Origin: an uncultured Actinomycetota bacterium
GTDB taxonomy: Bacteria; Actinomycetota; Actinomycetes; JACCUZ01
DNA length: 64,000 nt
Assembly (NCBI GenBank): GCA_963839955.1
Contig: CAWIXB010000001.1
Span: forward strand, 1,235,666-1,299,665
Reading direction: 5' to 3'
Below are positions 3,850 to 29,081 of this stretch, one piece after another. The notes beneath the pieces were generated by a model. It did no database searches. It had not been told where the DNA came from and saw nothing but the letters and a program-made list of their open reading frames with translations. Every line of letters begins with the position of its first letter. Position 1 is the stretch's first letter. A program made the position numbers and the translations under genes.

Positions 3850-3850
3850 C

Positions 3851-11666: not shown

Positions 11667-13154
11667 TCAGAACACCTCCGCCAAGCCGGTCTCCTGCAGC
11701 GGGTGGACGCCCTTCTTGCGACCGGGCACCTCGCCGCAGAGGCGGGGGGTCGGGAAGACCTTGCCGGGGTTGGACAGGTGCTGGGGGTCGAAGGCGCAGC
11801 GCAGCATCTGCATGGTGTCCAGGTCGTCGTCGGTGAACATCCGCGGCATGTACTTCGCCTTGTCCATGCCGACACCGTGCTCGCCGGTGATCGAGCCGGC
11901 GTACTCGATGCAGAGATCGAGGATGGCGCCCGAGATCTCCTCGGCCTTCTCGCTCTGGCCCGGCACCGTGTCGTCGAACAGGACGAGCGGGTGCAGGTTG
12001 CCGTCGCCGGCGTGAAAGACGTTCGCGACCCGTACCCCGCCCGGCTCGTCGTCGGACATCGCGGCGATGCGACGCAGTACGTCAGGCAGCGCGGTGCGCG
12101 GGATAACGCCGTCCTGGACGATGTAGTCGGGACTGATGCGGCCCACAGCGGCGAACGCCGACTTGCGGCCCTTCCAGAACAGCGCGCGCTGGGCGTCGTC
12201 CTTCGCGATGCGGATCTCGAAGGCGTGGTTGTCCTGGCAGAGCTTCTCGACCTGGCCGAACTGCGCCGCCACCTCCGGCTCGGGCCCGTCGAGCTCGATG
12301 ACCAGCACGGCACCGGCGCCCTCGGGGTAGCCGCACTGCACCGCCTCCTCCGCGGCCTCGATGGCCAGCGCGTCCATCATCTCGATCGCGGCGGGGATGA
12401 CACCGGCACCGATGATGGCCGACGTCGCTGCGCCCGCCTCGTCGGTCGAGGGGAATGCCGCGAGCATCGTGCGGACCGCCTCGGGCGCCCGCAGCAGCCG
12501 GACGGTGACCTCGGTTGCGATGCCGAGCGTGCCCTCGGAGCCGACGAACGCACCGAGCAGGTCGTAGCCGGGCGGGTCGGGTGCACGACCGCCGAGGCGT
12601 ACGACGTCGCCGTCGGGCGTCACCAGCTCGACACCGACGACGTGGTTGGTCGTGAAGCCGTACTTGAGGCAGTGAGCGCCGCCGGAGTTCTCGGCCACGT
12701 TGCCGCCGATCGAGCAGATCTGCTGGCTCGACGGGTCGGGCGCGTAGTAGTAGCCGTGCGGTGCGGCGGCCCGCGTGACGTCCAGGTTGATGACACCGGG
12801 CTGCACGACCGCTCGTTCGTCCGCAGCATCGACCTGGAGGATCTCGCGGATCTGCGAGGTCACGATCAACACACCTTCGGCGTGCGGCAGTGCCCCACCG
12901 GAGAGCCCGGTGCCGGAGCCACGGGCGACGTAGGGGACTCCGGCGTCGACGCAGGCCCGGACCACCGCGGCCACCTGTCCGGTGTCGCGGGGGAGCACGA
13001 CGACCGCGGGTGTGACCTTGTAGTGCGCGAGCCCGTCGCACTCGTAGGTGCGCAGCTGGGCGTGGTCGGTGAGGACGGCGTCCGTGCCGAGCTCGGCGTG
13101 CAGCCGCGCGACCAGACTCTGCAGCGTCGGGGACGCCATGATCGAGGTGGCCAT
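11667..13154 (-). CDS. glcD: FAD-linked glycolate oxidase subunit GlcD
   Basis: The 495-aa ORF has the FAD-binding-4 pattern (VVLPRDTGQVAAVVRACVDAGVPYVARGSGTGLSGGALP) and a C-terminal FAD-oxidase domain. Confidence 0.85.
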   Translation of the reverse strand: MATSIMASPTLQSLVARLHAELGTDAVLTDHAQLRTYECDGLAHYKVTPAVVVLPRDTGQVAAVVRACVDAGVPYVARGSGTGLSGGALPHAEGVLIVTSQIREILQVDAADERAVVQPGVINLDVTRAAAPHGYYYAPDPSSQQICSIGGNVAENSGGAHCLKYGFTTNHVVGVELVTPDGDVVRLGGRAPDPPGYDLLGAFVGSEGTLGIATEVTVRLLRAPEAVRTMLAAFPSTDEAGAATSAIIGAGVIPAAIEMMDALAIEAAEEAVQCGYPEGAGAVLVIELDGPEPEVAAQFGQVEKLCQDNHAFEIRIAKDDAQRALFWKGRKSAFAAVGRISPDYIVQDGVIPRTALPDVLRRIAAMSDDEPGGVRVANVFHAGDGNLHPLVLFDDTVPGQSEKAEEISGAILDLCIEYAGSITGEHGVGMDKAKYMPRMFTDDDLDTMQMLRCAFDPQHLSNPGKVFPTPRLCGEVPGRKKGVHPLQETGLAEVF

Positions 13155-13178
13155 GTCAGTCCCTGTTCCCCAAGCCGC

Positions 13179-14786
<1,608 letters not shown>

Positions 14787-14975
14787 GGGCGTGGTCCTCC
14801 CAGATGAAGCTGGTTGCGGCCGCAAACTCTGACGCGGACGCTAGACCGCCGCTGACATGACGGTCAACGCGACCCTGTCCACGCCGTCGTCCGTGGCTCC
14901 GTGCCGTGCCCCTTACCCCGTGGCGGCGTGAAAACGCGGCTGCCGCATCCAACCGGGCGTGACACTCTGGACGGG

Positions 14976-16445
14976 ATGACCGAGCCAGCTAGAGGCGTTG
15001 AGACAGCACAGATGACTTCCGTTCCCTACCGGGCAGAGGCGCAGCCGCACGACGGCGAGCAGCGCGATCTGGCCGACCGCCAGGCGCTGCGACGCGTCGC
15101 CGGGCTCTCGACCGAGCTCCAGGACGTCACCGAGGTCGAGTACCGCCAGCTGCGCCTGGAGCGCGTCGTGCTCATCGGCGTCTGGACCGGGGGCTCCATC
15201 GAGGCGGCCCAGAACTCGCTGGCCGAGCTCGCGGCGCTCGCCGAGACCGCTGGTGCCGTGGTGCTCGACGGGCTCATCCAGCGCCGCGACCGGCCGGACA
15301 CGGCGACGTACGTCGGCTCCGGGAAGGCGCGCGAGCTGCGCGACATCATCGTCGCCGAGGGCGCCGACACGCTCGTGTGCGACGGCGAGCTGACCCCCGG
15401 CCAGCTGCGCCAGCTCGAGGAGGTCGTCAAGGTCAAGGTCATCGACCGGACCGCGCTGATCCTCGACATCTTCGCCCAGCACGCCAAGAGCCGTGAGGGC
15501 AAGGCGCAGGTGGAGCTGGCCCAGATGGAGTACATGCTCCCGAGGCTGCGCGGTTGGGGTGAGTCGATGTCCCGCCAGGCCGGCGGTGCCGGAGGCTCCG
15601 GCTCCGGGGGCGTGGGCACCCGCGGCCCGGGCGAGACCAAGATCGAGACCGACCGGCGTCGGATCCGGACCCGGATGGCCAAGCTGCGCCGTGAGATCGG
15701 CGGCATGAGGACGGCGCGCGACACCAAGCGTCAGGAGCGCCGCCGTCACGAGGTGCCCTCGGTCGCGATCGCGGGCTACACCAACGCCGGCAAGTCCTCG
15801 CTGCTCAACCGGCTCACCGACGCGGGCGTGCTGGTCGAGAACGCGCTCTTCGCCACCCTCGATCCGACGGTGCGCCGCGCGCAGACCCCGGACGGCCGCG
15901 ACTACACGCTCTCCGACACCGTCGGGTTCGTCCGCCACCTGCCCCACCAGCTCGTCGAGGCCTTCCGCTCCACGCTCGAGGAGGTCGGCGGCGCCGACCT
16001 GCTGCTGCACGTCGTCGATGCGTCCGACCCCGACCCCGAGGCGCAGCTCGCCGCGGTGCGCGAGGTGCTGGCCGACGTCGACGCCCACGACGTCCGCGAG
16101 GTCGTCGTCGTGAACAAGGCCGACGTCGCCGCACCCGAGGTCGTCGATCGGCTGCTGCTGCGCGAGCCGCACGCCGTCGTCGTGTCGGCGCGCACCGGCC
16201 AGGGTCTGGAAGGGCTGCGGGCGCTCATCGCCGACGAGCTGCCCAAGCCGTCCGTGCCGGTCGACGTCCTGGTGCCCTACGACAGGGGCGACCTCGTGTC
16301 ACGTGTGCACGACGAGGGCGACGGCATCGAGGCCGAGCACGTCGCCGAGGGGACGCGGCTGCGGGCGAGGGTCACCCACGCCTTGGCCGGCGAGCTCGCC
16401 GCCTTCAACGGCAACGGCAACGGCAACGGCAAGCCCAAGCCCTGA
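14976..16445 (+). CDS. hflX: GTPase HflX
   Basis: The HflX N-domain and G-domain are present (GYTNAGKSSLLNRLT, DTVGF). The C-terminus ends in an NGNGNGNGKPKP tail. The start is uncertain: ATG 14976 or ATG 15012. The track start at 14901 is probably too far upstream. Confidence 0.85.
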   Translation: MTEPARGVETAQMTSVPYRAEAQPHDGEQRDLADRQALRRVAGLSTELQDVTEVEYRQLRLERVVLIGVWTGGSIEAAQNSLAELAALAETAGAVVLDGLIQRRDRPDTATYVGSGKARELRDIIVAEGADTLVCDGELTPGQLRQLEEVVKVKVIDRTALILDIFAQHAKSREGKAQVELAQMEYMLPRLRGWGESMSRQAGGAGGSGSGGVGTRGPGETKIETDRRRIRTRMAKLRREIGGMRTARDTKRQERRRHEVPSVAIAGYTNAGKSSLLNRLTDAGVLVENALFATLDPTVRRAQTPDGRDYTLSDTVGFVRHLPHQLVEAFRSTLEEVGGADLLLHVVDASDPDPEAQLAAVREVLADVDAHDVREVVVVNKADVAAPEVVDRLLLREPHAVVVSARTGQGLEGLRALIADELPKPSVPVDVLVPYDRGDLVSRVHDEGDGIEAEHVAEGTRLRARVTHALAGELAAFNGNGNGNGKPKP

Positions 16446-16505
16446 CCCCCACCCCCACCCCCACCCCCACCCCCACCCCCACCCCCACCCCCACCCCCAC
16501 CCCCC
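16446..16505. repeat. (CCCCCA)~10 hexanucleotide microsatellite immediately 3' of the hflX stop
   Basis: Read directly: cccccacccccaccccc… runs for about 60 nt. The complementary strand is (TGGGGG)n, which is capable of forming a G-quadruplex. Confidence 0.9.
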
Positions 16506-16518
16506 GGCTCCCAACCCC

Positions 16519-16941
16519 GTGGTGATCATGCAGTTGTGCAGCTGCGCCTCTCTCACCTGCGCAAACTCCAGTGGTGATCATGCAGTTGTGCAGCACGCCC
16601 TGGACTGACCGCCGCACGCGTCGCTGGCGGACCGGGTCCCGAAGATCGCAACCAGGCCCCACAAAGGTGTCGGCATCGGGCCCGAGGCACGCTCACCGTG
16701 AACGACCGAGCGAGGTAAAGGCTCGCGTTGTGGGGGCTGTTGCGATCACCCAAGGAGCGGGCGGAGACAGACGGGACAGAACCGGCGAGATGACGCGGCC
16801 GGGCGAGCAGCGACCGATCAGGCGCCCCCGGCCCGTCGAGTACGCCGGAGCGTTGCCGACCAAGGGCTGCACAACTGCATGATCACCGCACGGGTTTGCG
16901 CAGGTCAGAGCGTTGGTCCGGCACAACTGCATGATCACCGG
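16519..16941. mobile_element. MITE-like inverted-repeat element of about 420 bp: four copies of the 21-mer GGTGATCATGCAGTTGTGCAG (two direct on the left, two inverted on the right) plus a shared CCTGCGCAAAC sub-motif
   Basis: Copies lie at 16521-16541 and 16573-16593 (forward), and at 16867-16887 and 16921-16939 (reverse complement). CCTGCGCAAAC at 16556-16566 matches GTTTGCGCAGG at 16894-16904. The interior (16594-16866) has no credible gene. Confidence 0.6.
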
Positions 16942-17126
16942 TGAAGGGTGGGGTGGCGGGTGGGTGAGAAGGCGGCAAGTAACAGAGAGTAACTGTGCGA
17001 TTACGGTGCCGGATTTGTCTGTAGGCCCGTTCTCGGGCTTCGCCAATCCGTCGATCCTCCCGTGGCCGAACGAGTGTCGCCACCGCTGTGACGCCGTCAC
17101 AGCCACTCACCCCTCGGGAGGGGACC

Positions 17127-18665
17127 ATGTCTCGATCGAGACAGCCCGCACGGGCACGCGCAGTCGCGCTGCTCGGCGTGGGCACACTGCTCGTCGGCGG
17201 CGGCCTCGCCGGCCTCGCGCCCGGCGGCGCCACCGCATCAAGTCACCGGGAGGCCCCGGCCATCTCGGGGATGCCGGAGTACGACAACACCGACACCTAC
17301 GCGTTCGTCAGCCCGGACAAGCCCGACACGGTCACCCTCGTGGGGTCCTGGATCCCGTTCGAGGAGCCGGCGGGCGGGCCGAACTTCTACCCGTGGGCAA
17401 CCGACGCCCGCTACAACATCAACATCGACAACGATGGCGATGCCAAGCCGGACATCACCTACCGGTGGAAGTTCAAGAACAAGCGCACACCCGGCCCGGC
17501 GGACAGCTTCACCGGCAACGGCACGTTCCTGCACAACAACGGGCCGGTGACGTCGCTCAACGACGCGAACCTGCTCTTCCGGCAGACCTACGACCTGCGC
17601 AAGGTCAGCTACAACAACGCCGGGTACGTCACCAGCCGCCGCACCTTGCTCGACGACGCGCCCGTGGTGCCGTCGCGTGTGGGGAATGCGTCGATGCCGA
17701 ACTACGACGCGCTGTTCAACGCGGGGATCAAGAGCGTCACCGGCGGGATCAAGTCCTTCGCCGGCCAGTCAGACGACCCGTTCTTCCTCGACCTGCGCGT
17801 CTTCGACCTCCTCTACGGCGGCAACCTGTCCGAGGTCGGTAACGACACCCTCGCGGGGTTCAACGTGAACACCCTCGCCCTGCAGGTCCCGAAGGCCAAG
17901 CTGACCGCCGGCGACCCGGTGATCGGCGTGTGGAGCACGACGGACCGCCGCAACGCGCACGGCGCCTACAGCCAGGTGTCGCGACTGGGCAACCCGTTGG
18001 TCAACGAGGTGGTCGTGCCCTACCGGGTCAAGGACGCGTTCAACGCCTCCAAGCCGACCGATGACGGTGCGGCTGCCCCGCTGGTCACCAACCCGGAGCT
18101 CGCGAAGATCATCCAGGCGGTCTACGGCATCCCGGCCCCCAAGACACCGCGCAACGACCTCGTGTCGGTGTTCCTCACCGGTGTCGCCGGGCTGAACAAG
18201 CCGGCCAGTGTCACGCCGAGCGAGCAGCTCCGGCTGAACACGTCGATCAAGCCGTCGACGTCAAAGAAGCGGCTCGGCGTCATTGACGGCGACAACGCCG
18301 GGTTCCCCAACGGCCGTCGCCTTTCCGACGACGTGGTCGACATCGCCCTGCAGGTGGTCGAGGGCGAGCTTGTCGGCTCGAAGAACGACCTGGGTGACGC
18401 GGTGAACCAGAACGACAAGGAGTTCCGGAGGAGCTTCCCGTACGTCGCCACGCCGCACTCCGGGTCGACCGTGAATCCGCACAAGGTCAACAAGGGCTTC
18501 ACGGCCCTGACCGGCGGCAAGGCGCCGGACACCCCGGCAGGGGGCGGGCTCACCGACAGCCCGGTCGCCCCTGTCGCGCTGATCGGAGTCGGCGCGCTGT
18601 TGCTGGCCGCTGGTGCATTCGCCACGACCAGGTGGACGCGACGCCCGCACGTCGCGACTGCCTGA
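17127..18665 (+). CDS. DUF4331-family secreted protein with a C-terminal membrane anchor
   Basis: The signal peptide is followed by the signature ATASSHREAPAISG motif of DUF4331. The C-terminus contains a hydrophobic helix, PVAPVALIGVGALLLAAGAFATTRW. ATG 17127 has a GGGAGGGG RBS. The track start at GTG 17088 is an alternative. Confidence 0.75.
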   Translation: MSRSRQPARARAVALLGVGTLLVGGGLAGLAPGGATASSHREAPAISGMPEYDNTDTYAFVSPDKPDTVTLVGSWIPFEEPAGGPNFYPWATDARYNINIDNDGDAKPDITYRWKFKNKRTPGPADSFTGNGTFLHNNGPVTSLNDANLLFRQTYDLRKVSYNNAGYVTSRRTLLDDAPVVPSRVGNASMPNYDALFNAGIKSVTGGIKSFAGQSDDPFFLDLRVFDLLYGGNLSEVGNDTLAGFNVNTLALQVPKAKLTAGDPVIGVWSTTDRRNAHGAYSQVSRLGNPLVNEVVVPYRVKDAFNASKPTDDGAAAPLVTNPELAKIIQAVYGIPAPKTPRNDLVSVFLTGVAGLNKPASVTPSEQLRLNTSIKPSTSKKRLGVIDGDNAGFPNGRRLSDDVVDIALQVVEGELVGSKNDLGDAVNQNDKEFRRSFPYVATPHSGSTVNPHKVNKGFTALTGGKAPDTPAGGGLTDSPVAPVALIGVGALLLAAGAFATTRWTRRPHVATA

Positions 18666-18675
18666 CCAGATGAGT

Positions 18676-18712
18676 CGCCCGCCCGGCTGCGGCACTCCGC
18701 AGCCGGGCGGGA
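18676..18712 (+). terminator. strong GC hairpin (about 15-bp stem, 5-nt loop) between the DUF4331 gene and the TPR gene: an intra-operon attenuator or partial terminator
   Basis: Read directly: cgcccgcccggctgcgg-cactc-cgcagccgggcggga. There is no U-tract. The downstream gene starts 24 nt later with its own RBS (GAAGGAAA). Confidence 0.4.
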
Positions 18713-18735
18713 GACCGGGAAGCGAAGGAAACCGC

Positions 18736-20064
18736 ATGACGCCTCTGCTGAGGACGATCCGCGTGGCACTCGTCGTCGTCACGCTCAGCGCGATCATCAC
18801 GCTCGCCGCCACCATCTCTCTGGGTGGCGCGGCCGACGACCGTCGCGGTGCCGTGCCACAGGAGCCGGTCGCGTTGCAGCGGCTGGGCTCCTCCGACCTC
18901 TCCGCCGTCGTTGCCGGGCTGCAGCAAGGGCTGCGCGCGCAGCCCGAGGACGAGCGCGCGTGGTCCACGCTCGCCCTCGCCTACGTCGAGCAGGCCCGGG
19001 TCACCGCGGACCCCAGCTACTACCCGAAGGCCGAGCGCGCTCTTGACCGGGCCGCCCGGCTGTCGTCCGGCGACGACCTGATGCTCACCGGTCGCGCCAC
19101 CCTCGCCGGGGCTCGCCATGACTTCACCGCCGCACGCGCGTTCGCTGACCGCGCGCTGCGAACCAACCCCTACAACGCGCAGGCGCACGCCGTACGGTCG
19201 GACGCGCTCACCGAGCTCGGCCGCTACGCTGCCGCGTCCGCGGCCGCAACACGCGCCGACCAGCTGCGGCCCGGCGACGGCACATTCGCACGGCTGTCCT
19301 ATCAGGCGGAGCTGCGCGGCGACCTGGCCGGCGCGATGCGGCTGATGCGTGCCGCACAGACAGCGGCGGCCAGGCCGGAGTCCTTCGCGTTCGCGGCCGC
19401 CCACCTCGGCGAGCTGGCCCGCGCGTCCGGAAGCACGCGCGCCGCCGCGCGGCACTTCGCCGCTGCCCTCGACGCCGACCCCGACAGTGGTGCGGCGCGA
19501 GTCGGCCGGGCCCGGCTCGCCGTCGCCCGCGGCAACATCGCTCGCGCCGAGCGCGACTACCTCGCCGTCGTACGCCGGCTGCCTCTGCCCGAGTACGTCG
19601 TGGAGCTGGGCGAGCTCTACCAGGCGAGCGGTCGGCCCGAGCAGGCCCGGCGGCAGTACGCCGTGGCCGCCGCCTCGGCCGCGTTGGCCCGGTCCAACGG
19701 CGTCGGCACCGACCTCGAGACGGCACTCTTCGAGGCCGACCACGGCATCGCGAGCGAGGCGCTTCGCGCGGCGCGCGACGAGTGGGGTCGCCGGCACAGC
19801 GTGCACACCGCCGACGCACTGGCCTGGGCCCTGCACACGTCCGGCCAGTCCGCGCAGGCCCTTCCGTATGCCCGCCGGGCAACCTCGCAGGGCAGCCAGG
19901 ACGCGCGGGTCCTGTTCCACCGCGGTGTGATCGAGGCCGCCGCCGGTGACGCGGCGCTCGCGCGCCGGTTGCTGACCCGTGCAGTCGAGGTCGACGGCGG
20001 CAGCCACCCGCTACGCGCCCAGCAGGCCCGCACGCTGCTCGCCGGCCTGGGAGAGAACCGATGA
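18736..20064 (+). CDS. tetratricopeptide-repeat protein with an N-terminal TM anchor
   Basis: ATG 18736 gives MTPLLRTIRVALVVVTLSAIITLAATISLG (TM). The remainder is Ala/Leu/Arg-rich TPR-like helical repeats. The stop overlaps the next start (ATGA). Confidence 0.7.
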   Translation: MTPLLRTIRVALVVVTLSAIITLAATISLGGAADDRRGAVPQEPVALQRLGSSDLSAVVAGLQQGLRAQPEDERAWSTLALAYVEQARVTADPSYYPKAERALDRAARLSSGDDLMLTGRATLAGARHDFTAARAFADRALRTNPYNAQAHAVRSDALTELGRYAAASAAATRADQLRPGDGTFARLSYQAELRGDLAGAMRLMRAAQTAAARPESFAFAAAHLGELARASGSTRAAARHFAAALDADPDSGAARVGRARLAVARGNIARAERDYLAVVRRLPLPEYVVELGELYQASGRPEQARRQYAVAAASAALARSNGVGTDLETALFEADHGIASEALRAARDEWGRRHSVHTADALAWALHTSGQSAQALPYARRATSQGSQDARVLFHRGVIEAAAGDAALARRLLTRAVEVDGGSHPLRAQQARTLLAGLGENR

Positions 20065-21659
20065 CGCGTCGCATGCTTCTGCGGGCTGCCGTGTTCGGCG
20101 CTGTCGCCAGCGTCGTCGTGCTGCTCGTTCCGGGCACGGCGTCCGCCCATCCGCTGGGCAACTTCACCGTGAACCGCTTCAGTGAGCTCGTCGTCGGCGT
20201 CGAGTCCGTGCGCGTCGACCACGTGCTCGACCTGGCGGAGATTCCTACCGCGCAGCGGACGCCGGCGATCGACAGCGACGGCGACAGGGCGCTGTCCCGG
20301 GCCGAGCTCGCGACCTACGCACGTGACGCGTGCGCGGACTCGGCCGACACGCTGTCGTTGACCGTGGCGGGCAGGCCGGTCGCGCTCGACGTGCGCCGGT
20401 CGACAGCCCGCACCGTGGCCGGACAGGCCGGACTGCCGACGATGCGGGTGCACTGTGCTCTGTCGGCATCGACGCCGACCCTGGCCGGCCCGCGCGGCGT
20501 TTCCCTCGTGGACACCGCCGCCGACGCGGAGATCGGCTGGCGCGAGATCATCGCCGTCGGCGACCGGACGACGGTTGTCGAGTCGGACGTGTCGGCCCGC
20601 AGCACGAGCCGGCGGCTGACCCGCTACCCGGCAGACCTCTTGTCCAGTCCGCTCGATGTGCGCGCGGCGAACGTGCGCGTGACGCCGGGCGGTCCGGCCC
20701 TCGGTGACAACGCAGACGTGGGGGGCACTGGACTGCCCACCAAGCGCCTGACGGGGGCGTTCGAAGGTCTGGTGACCACCTACGACGGAAATCCGTTGGT
20801 CGTCCTCGGCGGCCTGCTGGCGGCGCTCGCCCTGGGCGCGGCGCACGCCCTCGCGCCGGGGCACGGCAAGACCGTGATGGCCTTCTACCTGAGTGGTCCG
20901 CGCCAGGGCGGCGTCCGCGCCGCCGGCACGGTGGCGGCAACCGTGACCGTGACGCACACGGCCGGTGTGCTGCTGCTCGGCGTGCTGGTGAGCGCCGGCA
21001 CCGGCTTCGTGCCCGCCCGGCTCTATCCGTGGCTCACGGTCGCGAGCGGGCTGCTCGTCGCCGCGGTCGGCGTCACCCTCCTTCGCGCTGCGCGCCACCC
21101 GCACACCCACGAGCATCCGCACCCGCACGCGCACGCACAGGCGCACCGCGATGTCGTGCCCGATCACGCGCGCCTGCCGGTGCTGGTCGGTGCAGCGACG
21201 CAGGAGCACGCCGAGACCGCGCACGGGCACCGCGACGACGGGCATCGTCACGACCACGGCCGTCACCACGACGCCCGCCACCACAGCGGCCATGACCACG
21301 ACGGCGGTCATCACCAGCACCGGCCCGCCTCGCGCCGCTCGCTGATCGCGATCGGGATGGCCGGCGGTCTGGTCCCGAGCCCGTCCGCGCTGGTCGTCTT
21401 CCTGGCCGCACTAGCCGTCGGGCACGCCTGGTTCGGCGTACTCCTCGTCGTCGCGTTCGGCCTCGGCATGGCGGTGACGCTCTCCGCCGTCGGGCTGCTC
21501 GTGATGCGGCTCCGGACCAGGTTCGATGGCCGGCTCGCCAGCCGGGCCGGGTCGCGCGGCGCCCGCGTGTTGCGAGCCCTGCCGCTCGTCACCGCATGCT
21601 CGGTGCTGGTTCTCGGCCTCGGGATCGCGGCACGAGGAGTCGGCGTCATCGGCGGCTGA
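20061..21659 (+). CDS. RcnA/NicO-family nickel/cobalt-type permease fused to an N-terminal periplasmic domain with an EF-hand-like loop
   Basis: The N-terminus has a signal peptide plus DSDGDRALSRAEL (a canonical DxDxDG EF-hand loop). The C-terminal half has 6 TM helices with the NicO motifs HALAPGHGKT and GLVPSPSA. A His-rich loop (HPHTHEHPHPHAHAQAH…HGHRDDGHRHDHGRHHDARHHSGHDHDGGHHQH) lies between TM3 and TM4. Confidence 0.7.
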   Translation: MTRRMLLRAAVFGAVASVVVLLVPGTASAHPLGNFTVNRFSELVVGVESVRVDHVLDLAEIPTAQRTPAIDSDGDRALSRAELATYARDACADSADTLSLTVAGRPVALDVRRSTARTVAGQAGLPTMRVHCALSASTPTLAGPRGVSLVDTAADAEIGWREIIAVGDRTTVVESDVSARSTSRRLTRYPADLLSSPLDVRAANVRVTPGGPALGDNADVGGTGLPTKRLTGAFEGLVTTYDGNPLVVLGGLLAALALGAAHALAPGHGKTVMAFYLSGPRQGGVRAAGTVAATVTVTHTAGVLLLGVLVSAGTGFVPARLYPWLTVASGLLVAAVGVTLLRAARHPHTHEHPHPHAHAQAHRDVVPDHARLPVLVGAATQEHAETAHGHRDDGHRHDHGRHHDARHHSGHDHDGGHHQHRPASRRSLIAIGMAGGLVPSPSALVVFLAALAVGHAWFGVLLVVAFGLGMAVTLSAVGLLVMRLRTRFDGRLASRAGSRGARVLRALPLVTACSVLVLGLGIAARGVGVIGG

Positions 21660-21670
21660 GCGTGCCAGCA

Positions 21671-23539
21671 CTACCCGTCAGTGCTCTCCTCAGCGCGGCT
21701 CTCCTGCGCCCGGCCACCGAGGTGCTGGGCGAGGAAGCTCTCCGCGGCGGCGTAGAACGTCTCGCGGTTCTCCGGCTTCGCCAGTCCGTGCCCCTCGTCG
21801 GGGAAGAGCAGGTAGTCGTGCGGCAGGCCCTTCTCGACGAGCGCTGCGACGATCTGCTCCGCCTCGGCCTGCTTGACCCGCGGGTCGTTGGCGCCCTGCG
21901 CGATCAGGACGGGGATGCGGATCGCGTCGACGTGCGCGAGCGGCGAGCGGTCCCAGAGCATCTCGCGTTCGTCGTCGGGGTGACCGATCCGTTGGTAGAG
22001 CATGGCTCGCATCGGCGCCCAGTAGTCGGGGATCGACGACAGCAGCGTCAGCAGGTTGGACGGACCGACCAGGTCGATCGCGCAGCGGAACACGTCAGGT
22101 GTGAAGGCGGCGCCGGCGAGGGCGGCGTACCCGCCGTACGACCCACCCATGACGGCGACCCGGTCACGGTCGACCCAGCCCTGCGCGACGACGTGGTCCA
22201 CCGCGTCGACGAGGTCGTCCTGCATCGCGCGCCCCCACTGCTTGTCGCCCGCGCCGAGGAAGGCCTTGCCGTAGCCCGTCGAGCCTCGGTAGTTGACCTG
22301 TACCGACACGTAGCCGCGGTTCGCGAGCCACTGGGCGTCGGGCGAGTAGCCCCACCGGTCGCGCACCCACGGCCCACCGTGAACATCGAGCACCGCGGGC
22401 AGCGCGGACCTGTCCACGCCGCGGGGGAAGGACAGGTAGCCGTGCACCGTGAGCCCGTCGCGTGCCCTGAAGGAGAACGGCTCCATCGGCGCGAGCTCGT
22501 GCTCCTCGAGTTCTTCGCGGTGCGCGAAGAGGTACGTCGTCGCGCCCGACGCGCGGTCGTAGACGTAGAACCTGGTCGGCCCGTCGGAGACCGACAGCGA
22601 GACCAGCCACCGCGTGTCGGAACGCTCCTGCCGGTCCACCCCGAGCTCACCGTCGCCGAGTGCGTCCAGACGGGCGAGGTCGGCGTCGAGAGACGCGTCG
22701 AGCGGGACGACGCGGGCGCGTTCCTCGTCGTAGACCACGGCCTGGGGCAGCCGGGTCTTCGGGTCGCGCCACACCTCCGCCACGTCGTAGACCGGGTCCC
22801 CGGCGACGACGGTGCGACTCCCGTCGCGGAGGTCGACGCGCACGAGCCGCGTCGCGTTCGCGTCCATCGAGGTGAGGACGTACAGCTCCTTGTTGTCGCG
22901 GTCGAAGCCGATGACGTCCGTCGTGGTCGCGTCGTCGGCGGGCACCTCGAGGAACGGCTGGTAGTCGTCGTCGCCGGACCCGGTGCGCCGCAGGAACGTC
23001 ACGCCGCCGTCCGGCTGCATGGTCATCCCGCCGCGCATCCACAGGTCGGTGTCGACCAGCCACGACACGAACCCCGGGTTGGTGGCCTCCTTGATGAGCG
23101 TGCCGCTCGTGAGGTCGAGCCGGTAGAGGTCGTGCAGCTGCGGGTTGTCCTGGTTGAGCCCGATCAGCATCGTCGTGGGGTGCCACCTGTTGTGGGCGAG
23201 GATCTGCGCGGTGACCTTGCGTTCCGGGGTGAGCAGACGTACGTCGCCGGTGGTGAGGTCGAGCGCATAGAGCCGCCAGTCCTCGTCGCCGTCGGTGTCC
23301 TGCAGGTAGACGAGGTGCCGGTCGTCGTGGCAGAAGAGAAACGTGCGGATGCCGCGGTCGCGGTCGTGGGTGACGGGTTGCGGCGGCCGGCTGCCGTCGG
23401 CAGGGCCCACCCAGACGTTGAGCACGCCGTTCTCCGGGGCTATGAAGCCGAGCAGGCTGCCGTCGGGGGACAGGCAGGGCGACATCCGGTCGGGGTTGCC
23501 GAACAGCACCGAGCGCGGGATCAACGGGGGAAGCGGCAT
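21671..23539 (-). CDS. S9 family peptidase (prolyl oligopeptidase/acylaminoacyl-peptidase-like)
   Basis: It has an N-terminal beta-propeller region and a C-terminal alpha/beta-hydrolase domain with the nucleophile motif GGSYGGY and a downstream Asp/His. Confidence 0.85.
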   Translation of the reverse strand: MPLPPLIPRSVLFGNPDRMSPCLSPDGSLLGFIAPENGVLNVWVGPADGSRPPQPVTHDRDRGIRTFLFCHDDRHLVYLQDTDGDEDWRLYALDLTTGDVRLLTPERKVTAQILAHNRWHPTTMLIGLNQDNPQLHDLYRLDLTSGTLIKEATNPGFVSWLVDTDLWMRGGMTMQPDGGVTFLRRTGSGDDDYQPFLEVPADDATTTDVIGFDRDNKELYVLTSMDANATRLVRVDLRDGSRTVVAGDPVYDVAEVWRDPKTRLPQAVVYDEERARVVPLDASLDADLARLDALGDGELGVDRQERSDTRWLVSLSVSDGPTRFYVYDRASGATTYLFAHREELEEHELAPMEPFSFRARDGLTVHGYLSFPRGVDRSALPAVLDVHGGPWVRDRWGYSPDAQWLANRGYVSVQVNYRGSTGYGKAFLGAGDKQWGRAMQDDLVDAVDHVVAQGWVDRDRVAVMGGSYGGYAALAGAAFTPDVFRCAIDLVGPSNLLTLLSSIPDYWAPMRAMLYQRIGHPDDEREMLWDRSPLAHVDAIRIPVLIAQGANDPRVKQAEAEQIVAALVEKGLPHDYLLFPDEGHGLAKPENRETFYAAAESFLAQHLGGRAQESRAEESTDG

Positions 23540-23632
23540 GGTCGAAACGATATGTCCGAGCTTCGACGCGCAAGTGGCGCGGCCCGCCCCGGAAGGGCCG
23601 GCCGCGCCACGAGCACGGTTGGGCTGCTCCGG

Positions 23633-24178
23633 CTATCCGAGGATCGCCAGGATCTGATTGAGCAGCGAGGCAAGCTGACCGAGCAGACCGTTCAGCCCGG
23701 TGCCGTCCAACAGGCCGGCCACGGCGCAGAGCAGGTTGCCGAGCAGGTTGCCCGGGCCCGGTTCCGCGGTGATGTTCAGGTGCACGGTGTCCAGGTGCAC
23801 GACGAGGCCGAGCAGGTCGAGGTCCAGCGGGCCGAGCACCAGGTCGAGGATCTGGCACGAGCCGGTGCTGGCTGCCGTGTTCACCGGCAGGGTCACTGTC
23901 TCGTCGACGGCCCGGGTGCCGCCCGCCGCGCTGGTCAACGTGCCGGTCAGCTCACCGACGGCCACCAGGTCGCCGTCCTGCACCGCAAACCGGCTCGGGT
24001 CGAACGTGCCCTTGAACGTCCCGCCGTCACTGGTGCTCCCCGTCACCGGGGCGGTCGCGGGGGCGGCCGTCGCCGCACTCGTGGCCGCGTTCGAGCTGGT
24101 CGCGGCCGCTGCGCCGACGAAGAGCAGGGTCGACAGGCTCACCACGACGGCGAGCAGCCGGATCAGTCGTCCGGTCAT
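23633..24178 (-). CDS. secreted hypothetical protein (Ala/Thr-rich N-terminal linker, Leu-rich C-terminus)
   Basis: The 181-aa ORF has the signal peptide MTGRLIRLLAVVVSLSTLLFVGAAAA. No recognisable domain was found. Confidence 0.45.
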   Translation of the reverse strand: MTGRLIRLLAVVVSLSTLLFVGAAAATSSNAATSAATAAPATAPVTGSTSDGGTFKGTFDPSRFAVQDGDLVAVGELTGTLTSAAGGTRAVDETVTLPVNTAASTGSCQILDLVLGPLDLDLLGLVVHLDTVHLNITAEPGPGNLLGNLLCAVAGLLDGTGLNGLLGQLASLLNQILAILG

Positions 24179-24318
24179 GTGGATTCCTTTCTTCGGGGCG
24201 GGGACACCTTGGCCAACGAGGCGCTTCGGCAGCCGCTACGGCCTACTGGCGAGTAATTACGCAACATCCGTGTGACGTATTTCACGACCGCCCCGGCACG
24301 CTCAGTAGCCGGAGGCTT

Positions 24319-26277
24319 GTGCCTCGCGGGGCAGTAGCCTCCGACCTCGTGCCCCCAACGACTGCGGACCTGCTCGCCTCCGTGGTGGCGGCGATCGCCG
24401 GCAGCGAGCGTCCTGGTCAGCTGCAGATGGCCGAGGCCGTCGCGGCCGCGATGGCCGAGGGCACGCATCTGCTGGTGCAGGCCGGAACCGGCACCGGAAA
24501 GTCGCTCGGCTACCTGGTACCGGCGCTGCTGCACGACGGGCCGGTGGTCGTGGCGACCGCCACCCTCGCGCTGCAGAGCCAGATCGTCGACCGCGACCTG
24601 CCCGCGCTCGTCGACGCCGCGGAGCCGCTGCTCGGCCGCCGGCCGTCCTTCGCCATCCTCAAGGGCCGCTCGCACTACGTGTGCCGCAACAAGGTGCACG
24701 GCGGCATGCCCGACGAGGGCGAGGACGTGCTTTTCGACGCATCGCCGACCACCGCGCTGGGCCGCGACATCGTGCGGGTGCGCGGTTGGACCGACGACAC
24801 GACCACGGGTGACCGCGACGAGCTCGAGCCGGGAGTCTCCGACCGGGCCTGGCGCCAGGTCAGTGTCACTGCCACCGAGTGTCTCGGCGCGGCCCGCTGC
24901 CCGTTCGGCAGCGACTGCTTCGCCGAGCTCGCACGGGACCGGGCGGCGCAGGCCGACGTCGTCGTCACCAACCACGCGTTGCTCGCCATCGATGCCCTGG
25001 AGAGCTTCGACGTGCTGCCGGAGCACGACGTGGTCGTCGTCGACGAGGCGCACGACCTGGTGGACCGCGTGACAGGGGTGGCGACCGACGAGCTCACGCC
25101 CGCGCTGGTCGAACGTGCGGCGAGCCGGGCCCGTCGACTCGTGGACGACCCCGACGACGCTGAGCGCCTCGCCGAGAGCGCCGAAGGGCTGGCGCTGGCG
25201 CTGGCCGCGACCGACGAGGGCCGGGTGGTGGACTTGCCCGAGCAGCTCACCGAGGCCGTCGCCGTCGTCCGTGACTCGGCGCGGGCGGTGCAGTCGGGAC
25301 TTGGCGCCGTGCGCGGTGGCGAGGACGGTGCCAAGAAGATCGCGCAGGCGGCGGTGTGGGACGTGCACGCCACTGCCGAGAGGGTGGCGGGCCACTCGCC
25401 GTACGACGTCACGTGGGTGGCCCGCGACGGGCGGCGCGGCTCGGTTCTGCGCGTCGCCCCGCTCTCGGTGAACGGTCTCCTGCGCGAGGCGCTCTTCGGG
25501 ACGCGGACGGTCGTGCTGACGAGTGCGACGCTCGAGCTCGGCGGCAGCTTCGACCCGATCGCCCGGCAGGTGGGGCTGACCGGCGAGGACGCGCCCGCGT
25601 GGGAGGGCCTCGACGTCGGATCGCCCTTCGACTACCAGCGCCAGGCCATCCTCTACGTCGCTCGCCGGCTGCCGCCGCCCGGCCGGGGCGCGGCGTCTGA
25701 TGCCTCGCTGGACGAGCTGGCCGCTCTCGTCGAGGCGGCCGGAGGTCGCACGCTCGGGTTGTTCTCGTCGATGCGCGCGGCCCAGGCTGCTGCCGAGGCG
25801 ATGCGTGACCGGCTCGACGTGCCGGTGCTCTGCCAGGGCGAGGACCGCACGGCGGCCCTGGTGCGGGCGTTCGCCGACGACCCGGCGACCTGCCTGTTCG
25901 GCACGCTGTCGCTGTGGCAGGGCGTCGACGTGCCCGGGGACTCGTGCCGGCTGGTGGTGATCGACCGTGTCCCGTTTCCCCGCCCGGACGACCCGTTGAT
26001 GTCCGCACGCGCGCAGGCGGTGAGCGACGCAGGAGGCAACGGCTTCATGTCGGTGTCGGCGACGCACGCGGCCCTGAAGCTGGCGCAGGGGTCCGGGAGG
26101 CTCATCCGTTCCGGGACCGACCGCGGGGTGGTGGCCGTGCTCGACTCCCGGGTCGTGACGGCTCGGTACGGCGAGTTCCTCCGCTCGTCGTTGCCGCCGT
26201 TCTGGCTGACCACCGAGCGCGAGGTCGCGGTGGGGGCGTTGCGCCGGCTGACTGCGGACGCCGGAGCTCGGGTCTGA
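24319..26277 (+). CDS. dinG: ATP-dependent DNA helicase, DinG/Rad3-like (SF2, Fe-S cluster type)
   Basis: The Walker A motif is LVQAGTGTGKSLGYLVPAL and the DEAH box is VVVDEAHDL. There is a 4-Cys cluster, CRNK…C…C…C (CLGAARCPFGSDC), and a C-terminal helicase domain (LSLWQGVDVPG). Confidence 0.85.
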   Translation: MPRGAVASDLVPPTTADLLASVVAAIAGSERPGQLQMAEAVAAAMAEGTHLLVQAGTGTGKSLGYLVPALLHDGPVVVATATLALQSQIVDRDLPALVDAAEPLLGRRPSFAILKGRSHYVCRNKVHGGMPDEGEDVLFDASPTTALGRDIVRVRGWTDDTTTGDRDELEPGVSDRAWRQVSVTATECLGAARCPFGSDCFAELARDRAAQADVVVTNHALLAIDALESFDVLPEHDVVVVDEAHDLVDRVTGVATDELTPALVERAASRARRLVDDPDDAERLAESAEGLALALAATDEGRVVDLPEQLTEAVAVVRDSARAVQSGLGAVRGGEDGAKKIAQAAVWDVHATAERVAGHSPYDVTWVARDGRRGSVLRVAPLSVNGLLREALFGTRTVVLTSATLELGGSFDPIARQVGLTGEDAPAWEGLDVGSPFDYQRQAILYVARRLPPPGRGAASDASLDELAALVEAAGGRTLGLFSSMRAAQAAAEAMRDRLDVPVLCQGEDRTAALVRAFADDPATCLFGTLSLWQGVDVPGDSCRLVVIDRVPFPRPDDPLMSARAQAVSDAGGNGFMSVSATHAALKLAQGSGRLIRSGTDRGVVAVLDSRVVTARYGEFLRSSLPPFWLTTEREVAVGALRRLTADAGARV

Positions 26278-26382
26278 GCCACGTTCTTGCTGGTCAACAG
26301 TATTTACGCGCTTTTGTCCCGCCTCGCAGCTTCGTCGGCCTAGGGTGCCCCTGACCCCGTCTTCTTTCGAAGGGCCACACCC

Positions 26383-29030: not shown

Positions 29031-29047
29031 CCGGAGGAACGGACGTG

Positions 29048-29081
29048 GACGGGGACGGGTGCGTTCGCACCCGTCCCCGTC
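29048..29081 (+). terminator. GC-rich hairpin terminator after the nuclease gene
   Basis: Read directly: gacggggacgggtgc-gttc-gcacccgtccccgtc. It forms a perfect 15-bp stem 18 nt after the stop. Confidence 0.5.

Follow-up and report, generated by a model that had tools for sequence, protein, structure and literature searches.

A conserved DUF4331–TPR–permease operon of Actinomycetota as a candidate envelope module for transition-metal capture and uptake

Introduction

What joint task might be served by three adjacent genes for envelope proteins found in the genome of an uncultured Actinomycetota bacterium? The genes lie in a stretch of 64,000 nucleotides that was analysed as a whole (the 64-kb window). 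A preliminary description of the locus had proposed a divalent-metal module of the cell envelope, possibly with calcium sensing; it made no mention of the X-X-His motif of the DUF4331 protein, the ECF-sigma promoter, the hairpin after gene 1, or the His1 and the Ang-1 likeness of the gene 3 product. We give an even chance to the reading developed here, in which the genes would constitute an ECF-sigma-controlled envelope module for the capture and uptake of a transition metal, with Ni(II) the likeliest substrate and Cu(II) or Co(II) possible.

Results

The three genes form a conserved envelope unit

All three open reading frames lie on the forward strand, and the gene calls of the source contig agree with them (512, 442 and 532 aa). 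Gene 1 (17127..18665, +) encodes a DUF4331 protein with a predicted signal peptide and C-terminal membrane anchor, gene 2 (18736..20064, +) encodes a TPR protein with an N-terminal membrane helix, and gene 3 (20061..21659, +) encodes a protein in which a signal peptide is followed by an outer domain beginning at His1 and by a six-helix permease of RcnA/NicO-like type. Profile matches to PF14224, TPR and PF03824 were all above cut-off, and the cluster originally described is real. The start of gene 1 was placed at ATG 17127, which is supported by all homologues and by the ribosome-binding site GGGAGGGG; GTG 17088 was rejected on the same two grounds, and the likely start codon lies 40 nt downstream of the start first proposed, 17087. 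The genes had been called tightly coupled. This holds for genes 2 and 3, whose ATGA overlap at 20061-20064 was confirmed and indicates translational coupling, but not for genes 1 and 2, since the ATG of gene 2 (18736) is 70 nt past the gene 1 stop and a 15-bp GC-rich hairpin (18678..18711, +) lies between them. The folding energy of this hairpin is -47.6 kcal/mol over an 81-nt stretch (z -5.7), and comparable hairpins follow gene 1 in 68/68 syntenic loci, with a mean of -34.9 kcal/mol versus -19.5 kcal/mol for coding controls. It may act as a partial terminator or as an mRNA-stabilising element.

The order gene 1–gene 2–gene 3 was found in 65 of the 68 actinobacterial loci with enough downstream sequence to be informative, which span Streptomyces, Actinomadura, Nocardioides, Amycolatopsis, Kibdelosporangium and metagenome-assembled genomes, and a reciprocal search from gene 3 homologues returned the same synteny. 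The DUF4331, TPR and permease genes are therefore a conserved envelope unit of three genes. Insertion between hflX and lexA is true only loosely, as five other genes separate the cluster from lexA (30084-30875, minus strand) and hflX adjoins it in 0/80 related loci. Outside the Actinomycetota, a Nostoc punctiforme plasmid carries the complete triad, with a gene 3 homologue that is 32% identical (E 3e-72), and a TPR gene follows the DUF4331 gene in Actinomycetota, Cyanobacteria, Proteobacteria and Bacteroidota. In Proteobacteria the DUF4331–TPR pair is retained and the permease is swapped for HupE/UreJ-2; Marinobacter, Pseudoalteromonas and Lichenicola have DUF4331, TPR and then a HupE_UreJ_2 permease, which itself has His1 after the signal peptide and a DxDxNGD loop. 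Moreover, the gene 3 outer domain matched only plasmid records that also encode DUF4331 (10/10 in the plasmid collection). In Adhaeribacter, DUF4331–TPR has only a TonB-dependent receptor nearby, and some DUF4331 genes are solitary, as amid type II secretion genes in Sulfitobacter. Finally, four Nocardioides-type loci have cbiM-N-Q-O next to the cluster, arranged in one of two ways.

The DUF4331 protein has a predicted ATCUN-type N-terminus

Gene 1 matched PF14224 (DUF4331) over profile positions 1-421 of 421 with 513.9 bits (cut-off 27; E 5e-154). The family comprises 5663 representatives at 50% clustering. The AF2 model of the protein (pLDDT 68) is beta-rich, and no convincing fold relative of it was found in the PDB. 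The predicted signal peptide (17127..17237, +) is 37 aa long and ends A-T-A, directly before the SSHREAP motif (residues 38-44; 17238..17258, +), which had been noted earlier and at which the Pfam DUF4331 model exactly begins. The predicted mature N-terminus is thus Ser-Ser-His, which fits an ATCUN-type X-X-His. A small-x-small cleavage motif stands right before (S/A)SH in 120/120 close homologues and in 103/149 diverse representatives, those without it being mostly fragments, or variants that are still X-X-His. With cleavage sites as predicted, X-X-His comes straight after the signal peptide in all 120 close homologues, and a reading of the 149 representatives found it in ~118 of ~120 full-length sequences. 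Proteobacterial homologues maintain it, as does Nostoc with SDH; in the homologue from Adhaeribacter, ~8 residues of the predicted mature protein precede SSHREAP. His40 is the sole invariant histidine of the family, and Cys is absent; the N-terminal segment of the model has a pLDDT below 50. From its sequence, the DUF4331 protein is predicted to be exported, and its mature X-X-His N-terminus to be an ATCUN motif for Cu(II)/Ni(II).

The C-terminal anchor already assigned to gene 1 was recovered as a hydrophobic helix (residues 480-501; 18564..18629, +) with the basic tail RWTRR, and an AF2 helix at residues 480-503 coincides with this predicted membrane anchor. The helix is found in nearly all full-length close actinobacterial DUF4331 proteins (3/120 stop short of it) and is absent from Gram-negative homologues. 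The ~420-residue domain has ~100 invariant positions, many of them Asp, Arg or Asn.

The TPR protein and the permease

Gene 2 matched TPR_19, TPR_14, TPR_16, TPR_17, TPR_2 and TPR_8 above cut-off and, weakly, TPR_CcmH_CycH. Its TPR domain is predicted to lie outside the cell membrane, anchored by the N-terminal membrane helix (18757-18828).

Gene 3 matched NicO (PF03824) with 36.2 bits (cut-off 27.7) and DsbD_2 with 35.8 bits; the NCBIfam RcnA model aligned to residues 254-480 with 65 bits, under its cut-off of 195. A DsbD/CcdA-type redox role was excluded for gene 3, whose membrane domain has no Cys pair. Both membrane motifs of RcnA type that had been recognised are present: HALAPGHGKT (residues 262-271; 20844..20873, +), within the region aligned to the RcnA model, and GLVPSPSA (residues 436-443; 21366..21389, +). 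HAxAPGHGK is invariant across 120 homologues and GLxPSPS occurs in 118/120 homologues scanned. Between helices 3 and 4, the extreme His-rich loop that had also been pointed out (residues 345-422; 21093..21326, +) holds 24 His in 78 residues and is disordered in the model; 118 homologues scored have 10-38 His in this loop. Since an outer N-terminal domain and three helices precede it, the loop is predicted to be cytoplasmic. By these motifs the membrane part is RcnA/NicO-like.

The outer domain (residues 30-232; 20148..20756, +) starts at His1 (HPLGNF) and is a modelled beta-sandwich of ~200 residues. Two methods gave the Ang-1 "anglerase" domain (PDB 9GCE) as its top structural match, a likeness confined to structure (TM-score 0.48, with 13-15% identity). 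Profile comparisons gave no sequence match to 9GCE or to outer domains fused to HupE. The model thus suggests an Ig-like beta-sandwich resembling the Cu/Ni-binding Ang-1 rather than the EF-hand domain proposed before. The 12-residue DxDxDG, EF-hand-like loop on which that proposal drew, DSDGDRALSRAE (residues 71-82; 20271..20306, +), is present between modelled helices 60-70 and 80-97, and its first Asp and last Glu are conserved among homologues. However, it is a single, unpaired insert with Arg at the canonical Gly position, it has no Pfam EF-hand match, and its profile matches to EF-hand proteins are weak (E 0.03); calcium sensing is not supported.

A shared ECF-sigma-type promoter motif

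An ECF-sigma-type promoter motif, CAATCC-N16-CCGAAC, lies at 17044..17071 (+), 56 nt before the ATG of gene 1, and is the one match in the 64-kb window (0.09 expected). Allowing at most one mismatch, CAATCC-N15/16-CCGAAT occurs at the same relative position in 57/86 related loci versus 3/430 shuffles. The motif also precedes an adjacent or divergent ECF sigma gene in several Streptomyces loci, and cbiM in three of the four cbiMNQO-adjacent Nocardioides-type loci (L009, L011 and L017; spacers vary, hexamers are constant), which are thus predicted to be co-regulated. We therefore propose that this shared motif drives the operon. A perfect palindrome, GCTGTGAC-GCC-GTCACAGC (17085..17103, +), read from the predicted 5' leader, could serve as an operator or form a hairpin in the leader.

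The regulators next to the operon in relatives (Streptomyces, Pseudoalteromonas) pair an ECF sigma factor with an anti-sigma factor that carries RskA_N and RskA_C domains, as in SigK/RskA-type systems (ECF18/ECF19); sigma and anti-sigma genes were not found in this 64-kb window. The operon motif resembles the mycobacterial SigK consensus, CCATCC-N16-CCGAAT. The known M. tuberculosis SigK regulon (mpt70, mpt83, dipZ), in contrast, contains no DUF4331.

Discussion

Parts of this operon resemble known metal systems. RcnA (YohM), the Ni/Co efflux permease of E. coli, presumably shares with gene 3 its six helices, HxxxPGHxKT, GGLxP(C/S)Pxx and a His-rich helix 3-4 loop, and each permease has an accessory extracytoplasmic protein, RcnB being the periplasmic partner of RcnA. 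Unlike RcnA, gene 3 has an extra 200-residue His1 outer domain and other operon partners, scores 65 bits against a cut-off of 195, and likely transports in the opposite direction. HupE/UreJ proteins are Ni importers, and HupE/UreJ-2 fills the permease slot of the DUF4331–TPR operon in Proteobacteria, while cbiMNQO adjoins it in four loci. N-terminal His chemistry is common to gene 3, HupE/UreJ and CbiM, which starts MHVPDG; however, gene 3 contains neither a HupE_UreJ nor a CbiM domain, and the HupE/UreJ and CbiMNQO/NikMNQO systems have no DUF4331 or TPR component. Like serum albumin, histatin-5 and the hCtr1 ectodomain, DUF4331 would offer a free N-terminal X-X-His with a non-Pro residue at position 2, and hCtr1 is a metal importer whose ATCUN motif faces outward. 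The DUF4331 motif differs in being predicted from signal peptide cleavage and in belonging to a large bacterial domain that is conserved but has no known fold.

The closest functional analogue, published in 2025, qualifies the earlier statement that the function had not been characterised. In anglerase-permeases, Ang-1 or Ang-2 is fused to HupE/UreJ-2, and the Ang-1 domain of 9GCE binds copper/nickel (Franco Cairo et al., Nat Commun 2025, PMC12537917; PDB 9GCE). As there, signal peptide cleavage in gene 3 would expose His1 on a non-cytoplasmic domain of 170-200 residues, an Ig-like beta-sandwich in which helices are inserted after strand 2. In both cases this domain is joined to a metal permease with several helices, and the proposed logic is capture outside followed by feeding to a channel. 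The differences are that gene 3 has, in place of HupE_UreJ_2 (PF13795), an RcnA/NicO-like membrane domain (PF03824) that includes a His-rich loop, and that sequence-level similarity of the outer domain to Ang-1 was not found. The main text of that paper has no DUF4331, TPR or ECF-sigma partners, and DUF4331 appears just twice in its supplementary neighbour list (PMC12537917).

Ni/Cu/Co is indicated by five independent features, namely the His1 domain and its fold match, the conserved X-X-His, the His-rich loop, the HupE/UreJ-2 substitution and the cbiMNQO adjacency. The original idea of a transition-metal envelope module is strengthened by the RcnA/NicO motifs, the HupE/UreJ-2 substitution, the cbiMNQO adjacency and the structural match to a Cu/Ni-binding domain. 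Characterised RcnA proteins are Ni/Co exporters, which counts against uptake, and gene 3 could instead pump Ni/Co (or Cu) from the cytoplasm, with DUF4331 and TPR proteins as extracytoplasmic sinks or modulators, as RcnB is for RcnA, and an ECF pair that senses envelope metal excess, as CnrYXH does. The RcnA model is indeed the best match of the membrane domain, with the RcnA-type motifs and the His-rich loop between helices 3 and 4, and heavy-metal resistance genes have been linked to some ECF groups whose anti-sigma factors are RskA-like (PMC7826278). However, the model score is far under cut-off, and the motif also precedes the Co/Ni importer cbiMNQO in three loci, where co-inducing importer and exporter would make little sense. 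Moreover, an importer-type permease, HupE/UreJ-2, takes the equivalent operon position in Proteobacteria, and an outward-facing His1 capture domain suits uptake, as proposed for anglerases; we consider efflux quite unlikely.

That the invariant positions of DUF4331 exceed the needs of a metal hook suggests that it may have another activity. It might be an extracytoplasmic Ni- or Cu-dependent enzyme or redox protein, to which the permease supplies metal and for which the TPR protein is an assembly chaperone, as CcmI/CycH is for apocytochrome c. The weak TPR_CcmH_CycH match, the stand-alone DUF4331 genes and the constancy of the DUF4331–TPR core beside a varying transporter (NicO-like, HupE/UreJ-2, or the nearby receptor in Adhaeribacter) favour such a maturation role, which we rate as unlikely on the whole. 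A role apart from transition metals, with DUF4331 as a Ca-stabilised surface protein (an adhesin or envelope-stress effector) in a SigK/RskA-type envelope regulon and the permease moving another solute, seems to us very improbable. It would accommodate the DxDxDG loops in genes 1 and 3, which suggest Ca sites, the annotation of gene 3 relatives as TauE/SafE ('TauE/SafE sulfite exporter') or DsbD_2, and the lack of a known signal for SigK/RskA-type systems (PMC7509140); against it stand the five features above and, for a DsbD-type role, the missing Cys pair.

For metal capture and uptake, nickel is the best candidate substrate and copper the second. An ECF sigma factor paired with an anti-sigma factor of RskA type, the genes for both lying elsewhere in the genome, would turn on expression, and the hairpin would cause DUF4331 to be produced in excess. 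Anchored in the membrane through its C-terminal helix, DUF4331 would bind metal via its N-terminal ATCUN hook, and the membrane-anchored TPR protein would keep it beside the permease. The His1 'angler' domain would then accept the metal and pass it to the six-helix channel, and the cytoplasmic His-rich loop would receive or buffer it. We infer import only from the equivalence of operon position with HupE/UreJ-2 and the co-regulation with cbiMNQO. Since the affinity of ATCUN motifs for Cu(II) exceeds that reported for Ang by about a thousand-fold or more, it is not obvious that metal could simply pass downhill from DUF4331 to the permease. The proposal is computational for all three proteins, and it would give the large uncharacterised DUF4331 family a testable function.

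Gene content and genomic setting of the cluster

The three genes lie on the plus strand and encode proteins of 512, 442 and 532 amino acids, in concordance with the gene calls of the source contig. Gene 1 (17127-18665, +) matched the DUF4331 family PF14224 over the whole profile, gene 2 (18736-20064, +) encodes an N-terminal membrane helix and matched several TPR families above cut-off in addition to a weak match to the CcmH/CycH TPR domain, and gene 3 (20061-21659, +) matched NicO (PF03824). The DUF4331, TPR and NicO assignments of the preliminary description were all recovered above cut-off, and the motifs it had quoted (SSHREAP, DSDGDRALSRAE, HALAPGHGKT, GLVPSPSA and the His-rich loop) are present in the sequence. 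We placed the start of gene 1 at the ATG at 17127 and not at the GTG at 17088, a choice backed by all homologues and by the ribosome-binding site GGGAGGGG. The tight coupling that had been claimed for all three genes holds for genes 2 and 3, which share the described ATGA overlap at the gene 3 start and are translationally coupled, but not for genes 1 and 2, which are separated by a 70-nt spacer containing a 15-bp GC hairpin.

The cluster had also been placed between hflX and lexA. While hflX is directly upstream, lexA (30084-30875, minus strand) is not adjacent and is separated from the cluster by five genes, encoding an S9 peptidase, a small secreted protein, a DinG-like helicase, an RTX/endonuclease-exonuclease-phosphatase protein and an ATP-dependent DNA ligase. 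A scan with one genome per species yielded 80 loci encoding close DUF4331 relatives. Since hflX adjoins the cluster in none of these 80 loci, the chromosomal position is not conserved; a conserved position was rejected, with hflX, the S9 peptidase gene and the DinG-like gene missing from 80/80. The small secreted protein (23633-24178, minus strand), located between the S9 peptidase and DinG-like genes, has 181 residues, a predicted secreted character and an Ala/Thr/Leu/Gly-rich composition, and belongs to no Pfam family. The DinG-like helicase (24319-26277), an 881-residue protein combining an endonuclease/exonuclease/phosphatase domain with RTX calcium-binding repeats (approximately 26383-29030) and the ATP-dependent DNA ligase (29103-30074) stand in a row beside lexA, and the stretch 24319-30875 may be a damage-response neighbourhood.

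The spacer between hflX and gene 1 (16440-16985) carries a (CCCCCA)x10 run straight after the hflX stop codon. Just ahead of this microsatellite, a (CAACGG)n repeat (16404-16445) encodes the low-complexity C-terminal tail of HflX, GNGNGNGKPKP; slippage could change the length of either repeat. Beyond the CCCCCA run lies a 419-bp element (16521-16939), whose 74-nt inverted arms show 84% complementarity and contain two exact copies of GGTGATCATGCAGTTGTGC each, 52 nt apart. After the element comes a G-rich complement of the C-run, and a folding energy of -292 kcal/mol (z -8.1) was computed for the whole stretch. The 19-mer of the element has no other copy in the window and gave only nine single exact matches in metagenome contigs, which chance could explain. 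We rejected the inverted repeat as a conserved regulatory site of the operon, as the element is missing from the closest relatives (loci L005, L006 and L010); a MITE-like insertion and a structured element peculiar to this strain are both conceivable.

The operon is conserved and its transporter is exchanged between phyla

The order of the three genes was kept across Actinobacteria. Among the 68 loci having at least 3.5 kb of downstream sequence, 65 have gene 2 and then gene 3 co-directionally after the DUF4331 gene, and one further locus has genes 2 and 3 adjacent but inverted. The loci cover Streptomyces, Actinomadura, Nocardioides, Amycolatopsis, Kibdelosporangium, Virgisporangium and many metagenome-assembled genomes, and a reciprocal search starting from gene 3 homologues gave the same picture. 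The DUF4331 family itself comprises 5663 representatives at 50% clustering (E up to 1e-3) and occurs in at least four phyla. On a Nostoc punctiforme plasmid, DUF4331 and TPR genes precede a 488-residue homologue of gene 3 (32% identity over the full length, E 3e-72) that shares the HPLGNF start, the membrane motifs and the His-rich loop. On Marinobacter, Pseudoalteromonas and Lichenicola plasmids, the DUF4331 and TPR genes are followed by a gene for a 365-381-residue HupE_UreJ_2 (PF13795) protein, and two of these cases have an extra small gene between DUF4331 and TPR. The Proteobacterial permease bears an extra N-terminal 160-175 residues, with a His right after the signal peptide and a DxDxNGD loop. 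The DUF4331 protein of Adhaeribacter (Bacteroidota) carries a C-terminal domain for type IX secretion; its gene precedes a TPR gene and has TonB-dependent receptor genes as neighbours. Because NicO-like and HupE_UreJ_2 proteins alternate across phyla, we regard DUF4331 and TPR as the constant core of the operon and the transporter as interchangeable. Both transporter superfamilies have already been linked to nickel and cobalt.

Several loci showed further features in their surroundings. Sulfitobacter pontiacus has a solitary DUF4331 gene, lacking TPR and permease partners, among type II secretion genes (locus L090, 6923-8548), a hint that this system secretes some DUF4331 members. In Tenggerimyces flavus (locus L001), a classical SigK-regulon-like set lies near the cluster (1-4577), encoding a fasciclin protein, RskA, an ECF sigma factor, thioredoxin and a DsbD-AhpC/TSA fusion, and the cluster is followed by genes for a MauE-like 122-residue membrane protein and a DUF4394 protein (12630-13927). 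In a metagenome-assembled genome of the Sporichthyaceae (locus L010), a c-di-AMP riboswitch (RF00379, 70 bits; 1413-1580, minus strand) precedes the DUF4331 gene by about 2.3 kb and is probably unrelated to the cluster.

Almost all DUF4331 proteins have a predicted X-X-His N-terminus

Gene 1 matched PF14224 with 513.9 bits (cut-off 27) over profile positions 1-421 of 421, and the SSHREAP motif was found at residues 38-44, in agreement with the preliminary description. The motif (S38-P44) is invariant in 43 aligned homologues, and the profile starts exactly at its first Ser. All of 120 close homologues have a signal peptide with a small-x-small end directly before (S/A)SHREAP. For gene 1, predicted cleavage at ATA/SSH would yield a mature X-X-His N-terminus in which residue 2 is not Pro, a pattern that fits an ATCUN site. 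A free N-terminus followed by X-X-His constitutes the ATCUN Cu(II)/Ni(II) motif known from albumin, histatin and the hCtr1 ectodomain.

The arrangement extends well beyond the close relatives. A signal peptide ahead of (S/A)SHREAP, arranged as in the close homologues, occurs in 103 of 149 diverse representatives, and a reading of the listed sequences indicated that about 15 more keep X-X-His in variant form (SSHSEAP, SNHRSAP, GGH, SQH), so that X-X-His is present in about 118 of about 120 full-length sequences by the same reading. Only two full-length sequences among the 149 are without the His, the remainder being fragments. Four Proteobacterial examples and the Nostoc protein (ALA/SDH) match the predicted N-terminus; one Bacteroidota homologue, from Adhaeribacter, does not fit the pattern. 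His40 is the sole invariant His of the family, and the gene 1 protein has no Cys.

Beyond the N-terminus, the DUF4331 domain is beta-rich, with numerous invariant Asp, Arg and Asn positions and a DxDxDG-type loop, NIDNDGD. The strong conservation of these 420 residues suggests that the body may have an additional, perhaps enzymatic, activity. Structure comparison gave no convincing PDB relative for DUF4331, and a PDB sequence search with gene 1 retrieved nothing significant. Almost all close actinobacterial homologues end in a membrane helix and a basic tail.

Gene 3 joins an NicO/RcnA-like permease to a predicted His1 outer domain

The preliminary description of gene 3 as a NicO/RcnA-type permease with six transmembrane helices and a His-rich loop was upheld. 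The match to NicO is weak (36.2 bits, cut-off 27.7, residues 253-485), and gene 3 also matched DsbD_2 with 35.8 bits; the NCBIfam RcnA model (PRK10019) reached 65 bits, below its cut-off of 195. An AF2 model predicts six helices (245-264, 284-312, 321-345, 425-452, 456-493 and 499-531), and the loop between helices 3 and 4 (residues 345-422) contains 24 His in 78 residues. The membrane motif positions read APGHG and PSPS. Gene 3 has no match to PF13795 (HupE/UreJ-2), whereas its Proteobacterial operon counterparts do, and a PDB sequence search gave nothing significant for either gene 3 or the HupE-type counterpart. We rejected membership in the NiCoT family (HoxN/NixA), the single HX4DH match being located at residue 407, in the His-rich loop and not in a helix, and also a DsbD/CcdA redox role, as the protein has no membrane Cys pair (Cys at 91, 132 and 513 only).

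The N-terminal extracytoplasmic part (residues 30-232), referred to here as the outer domain, has a pLDDT near 95 over residues 40-190 in the AF2 model, which was built from 44 sequences. The model predicts a non-cytoplasmic Ig-like beta-sandwich that resembles the solved Ang-1 domain. Predicted cleavage at TASA/HPLGNF would make His the first residue of the mature protein, and a His right after a small-x-small site (TASA/HPLGNF or a close variant) was found in 116 of 116 gene 3 homologues with the N-terminus present. Ang-1 and Ang-2, the metal-binding domains of the anglerases, are Ig-like domains in which signal peptidase exposes His1, forming a mono-histidine brace (Franco Cairo et al. 2025, PMC12537917; PDB 9GCE). 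Ang-1 is reported to bind Cu2+ with an affinity of 74 nM and Ni2+ with 220 nM, and Ang-2 to bind Cu2+ with 62 nM; both are fused to HupE/UreJ-2 permeases, for which they have been proposed to fish metal ions and pass them on (PMC12537917). Gene 3 likewise has a predicted His1 and an Ig-like outer domain, but its membrane domain is NicO/RcnA-like and not HupE/UreJ-2 (PF13795). The main text of the anglerase paper does not mention DUF4331, TPR or NicO, and DUF4331 appears twice in its supplementary neighbour count (PMC12537917).

Sequence comparison did not join the two kinds of outer domain. The outer-domain profile did not retrieve 9GCE from the PDB sequences, the outer domains had no Pfam match even at E up to 10, and hhalign of the outer domain against three HupE-fused outer domains aligned the DxDxDG loop alone, without significance. 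No sequence-level resemblance of the gene 3 outer domain to Ang-1 or to the HupE-fused outer domains emerged from these comparisons. In a plasmid collection, the outer domain matched ten records, all with DUF4331 nearby; the annotation at the matching site reads nickel transporter or TauE/SafE, or is missing. On the modelled fold and predicted His1, we view gene 3 as a variant on the anglerase-permease principle.

The outer domain had also been said to hold a canonical EF-hand loop, with calcium sensing suggested as a possibility. In an EF-hand loop, which helices flank on both sides, positions 1, 3 and 5 are Asp or Asn, position 6 is Gly, position 8 is hydrophobic and position 12 is Glu. The 12-residue loop DSDGDRALSRAE fits positions 1, 3, 5, 8 and 12, but Arg takes the place of the canonical Gly at position 6, which most gene 3 homologues keep (DxDxDG). 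Two helices are predicted to flank it in the AF2 model, and a profile search gave weak matches of the outer domain to EF-hand proteins (E 0.03). EF-hand HMMs found no match on the outer domain at E up to 10, and the loop is single and unpaired. A structural calcium site at this EF-hand-like loop is plausible, but calcium sensing is not supported.

A shared ECF-type promoter motif precedes the operon

A promoter-like sequence, CAATCC-N16-CCGAAC, lies at 17044-17071, 56 nt ahead of the gene 1 start codon, and is the sole match in the 64-kb window (0.09 expected). With up to one mismatch, the motif was found at the equivalent position in 57 of 86 loci versus 3 of 430 shuffled controls; the hexamers are fixed across loci and the spacers vary. 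It resembles what we take to be the mycobacterial SigK consensus. In about 50 of the 80 related loci, the operon is adjoined by genes for an ECF sigma factor and its anti-sigma factor, the latter with RskA_N and RskA_C domains. These genes are divergently upstream of gene 1 in most Streptomyces loci and downstream in Actinomadura, and they are directly upstream in Pseudoalteromonas; tblastn found neither gene in the 64-kb window. The motif also occurs on the opposite strand before the divergent sigma gene in five loci (L024, L026, L037, L043 and L058) and before a co-directional sigma gene in another (L032). Such a pattern would be expected of an autoregulated ECF sigma factor together with the operon that it targets. 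In three Streptomyces loci, an extra copy, CCATCCC(T/A)C(G/T)TTGACTACTCTCCGAAT, was seen on the plus strand just past the 3' end of the anti-sigma gene (L025 at 6311, L035 at 6272, L048 at 6231); it may serve as a further promoter of the regulon or drive antisense transcription.

In three Nocardioides-type loci, cbiM-cbiN-cbiQ-cbiO directly follows the cluster, and the 70-nt gap before cbiM holds CCATCC-N15/16-CCGAAC (L009 at 12413, L011 at 12458, L017 at 12451) with differing spacers. Because the same motif precedes cbiM, the cobalt/nickel importer cbiMNQO appears to belong to the same putative regulon as the cluster in these loci. No cobalamin or NiCo riboswitch was found in eight related loci, those with cbiM included, and the motif suggests control of cbiMNQO by an ECF sigma factor rather than by a B12 riboswitch or NikR. 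A fourth locus (L033) has cbi genes adjacent to the cluster in divergent orientation. Rfam detected no riboswitch or other RNA family in window positions 14000-25000, and a scan for sigma-70 promoter and terminator consensus was uninformative.

An 81-nt stretch containing the hairpin between genes 1 and 2 folds at -47.6 kcal/mol (z -5.7), and each of the 68 syntenic loci tested has a stable GC hairpin after the stop codon of gene 1. There, the best 50-nt window averaged -34.9 kcal/mol, versus -19.5 for coding controls. By analogy with operons of binding-protein-dependent transporters, the hairpin suggests that DUF4331 may be made in excess over its two membrane partners.

Metal, direction of transport and novelty

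The cluster had been interpreted as a divalent-metal envelope module, possibly with calcium sensing. The conserved unit was upheld, five features agree on a transition metal, and calcium sensing was not supported. ATCUN sites bind copper and nickel, RcnA/NicO proteins handle nickel and cobalt, HupE/UreJ proteins nickel, and CbiMNQO/NikMNQO cobalt and nickel. Ang-1 binds copper and nickel (PMC12537917). A transition-metal system is thus the likely reading, and since Ni(II) alone is compatible with all five features, nickel is our tentative candidate, although at somewhat less than even chances. Whether the system imports its metal we consider evenly balanced. Uptake is favoured over efflux because Proteobacteria have an importer-type permease at the equivalent operon position, because the promoter motif in three loci also precedes an importer, and because both predicted metal sites face outward; against it, the characterised RcnA proteins are exporters. 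In the uptake route that we propose, the N-terminal hook of DUF4331 would capture the metal and the TPR protein would dock DUF4331 to the permease. The His1 domain would then hand the ion on to the RcnA-like channel, with the His-rich loop as its recipient on the cytoplasmic side.

Because the affinity of ATCUN sites for Cu(II) far exceeds the values reported for Ang, a simple downhill relay from DUF4331 to the permease is not obvious. Should the strongly conserved 420-residue body indeed have an additional activity, the permease and TPR protein might instead work in the reverse direction and load DUF4331 with metal. More speculatively, and in our estimate with less than even probability, DUF4331 would found a hitherto unrecognised class of bacterial extracytoplasmic metalloproteins whose working site is the N-terminal hook exposed by signal peptidase. 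ATCUN hook, dedicated TPR adaptor and interchangeable His1 "angler" permeases (NicO-like or HupE/UreJ-2) would then form a new protein-based nickel (or copper) acquisition pathway under an ECF sigma factor and an RskA-type anti-sigma factor.

The three families are already annotated individually, and the anglerase-permease principle was published in 2025. We found no earlier description of a His1 domain fused to an RcnA/NicO-like permease, of the cross-phylum DUF4331-TPR-permease operon, of the near-universal predicted X-X-His N-terminus of DUF4331, or of the shared ECF promoter motif that also precedes cbiMNQO in three loci. DUF4331, PF14224 and SSHREAP had no main-text occurrence in the full-text library that was searched. 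The permease link, the predicted N-terminus and the shared promoter motif make the function of DUF4331 testable. If the uptake reading is true, the anglerase concept of 2025 would come to cover a second permease superfamily as well as a machine of three components. Soil actinomycetes need nickel for Ni-SOD, urease and hydrogenases, and the cluster would represent a new route of nickel or copper acquisition in these organisms and in cyanobacteria. It would also be a pointer to what SigK/RskA-type sigma systems sense; should DUF4331 indeed found a metalloprotein class of its own, envelope metal limitation would be the first defined physiological input for that sigma family.
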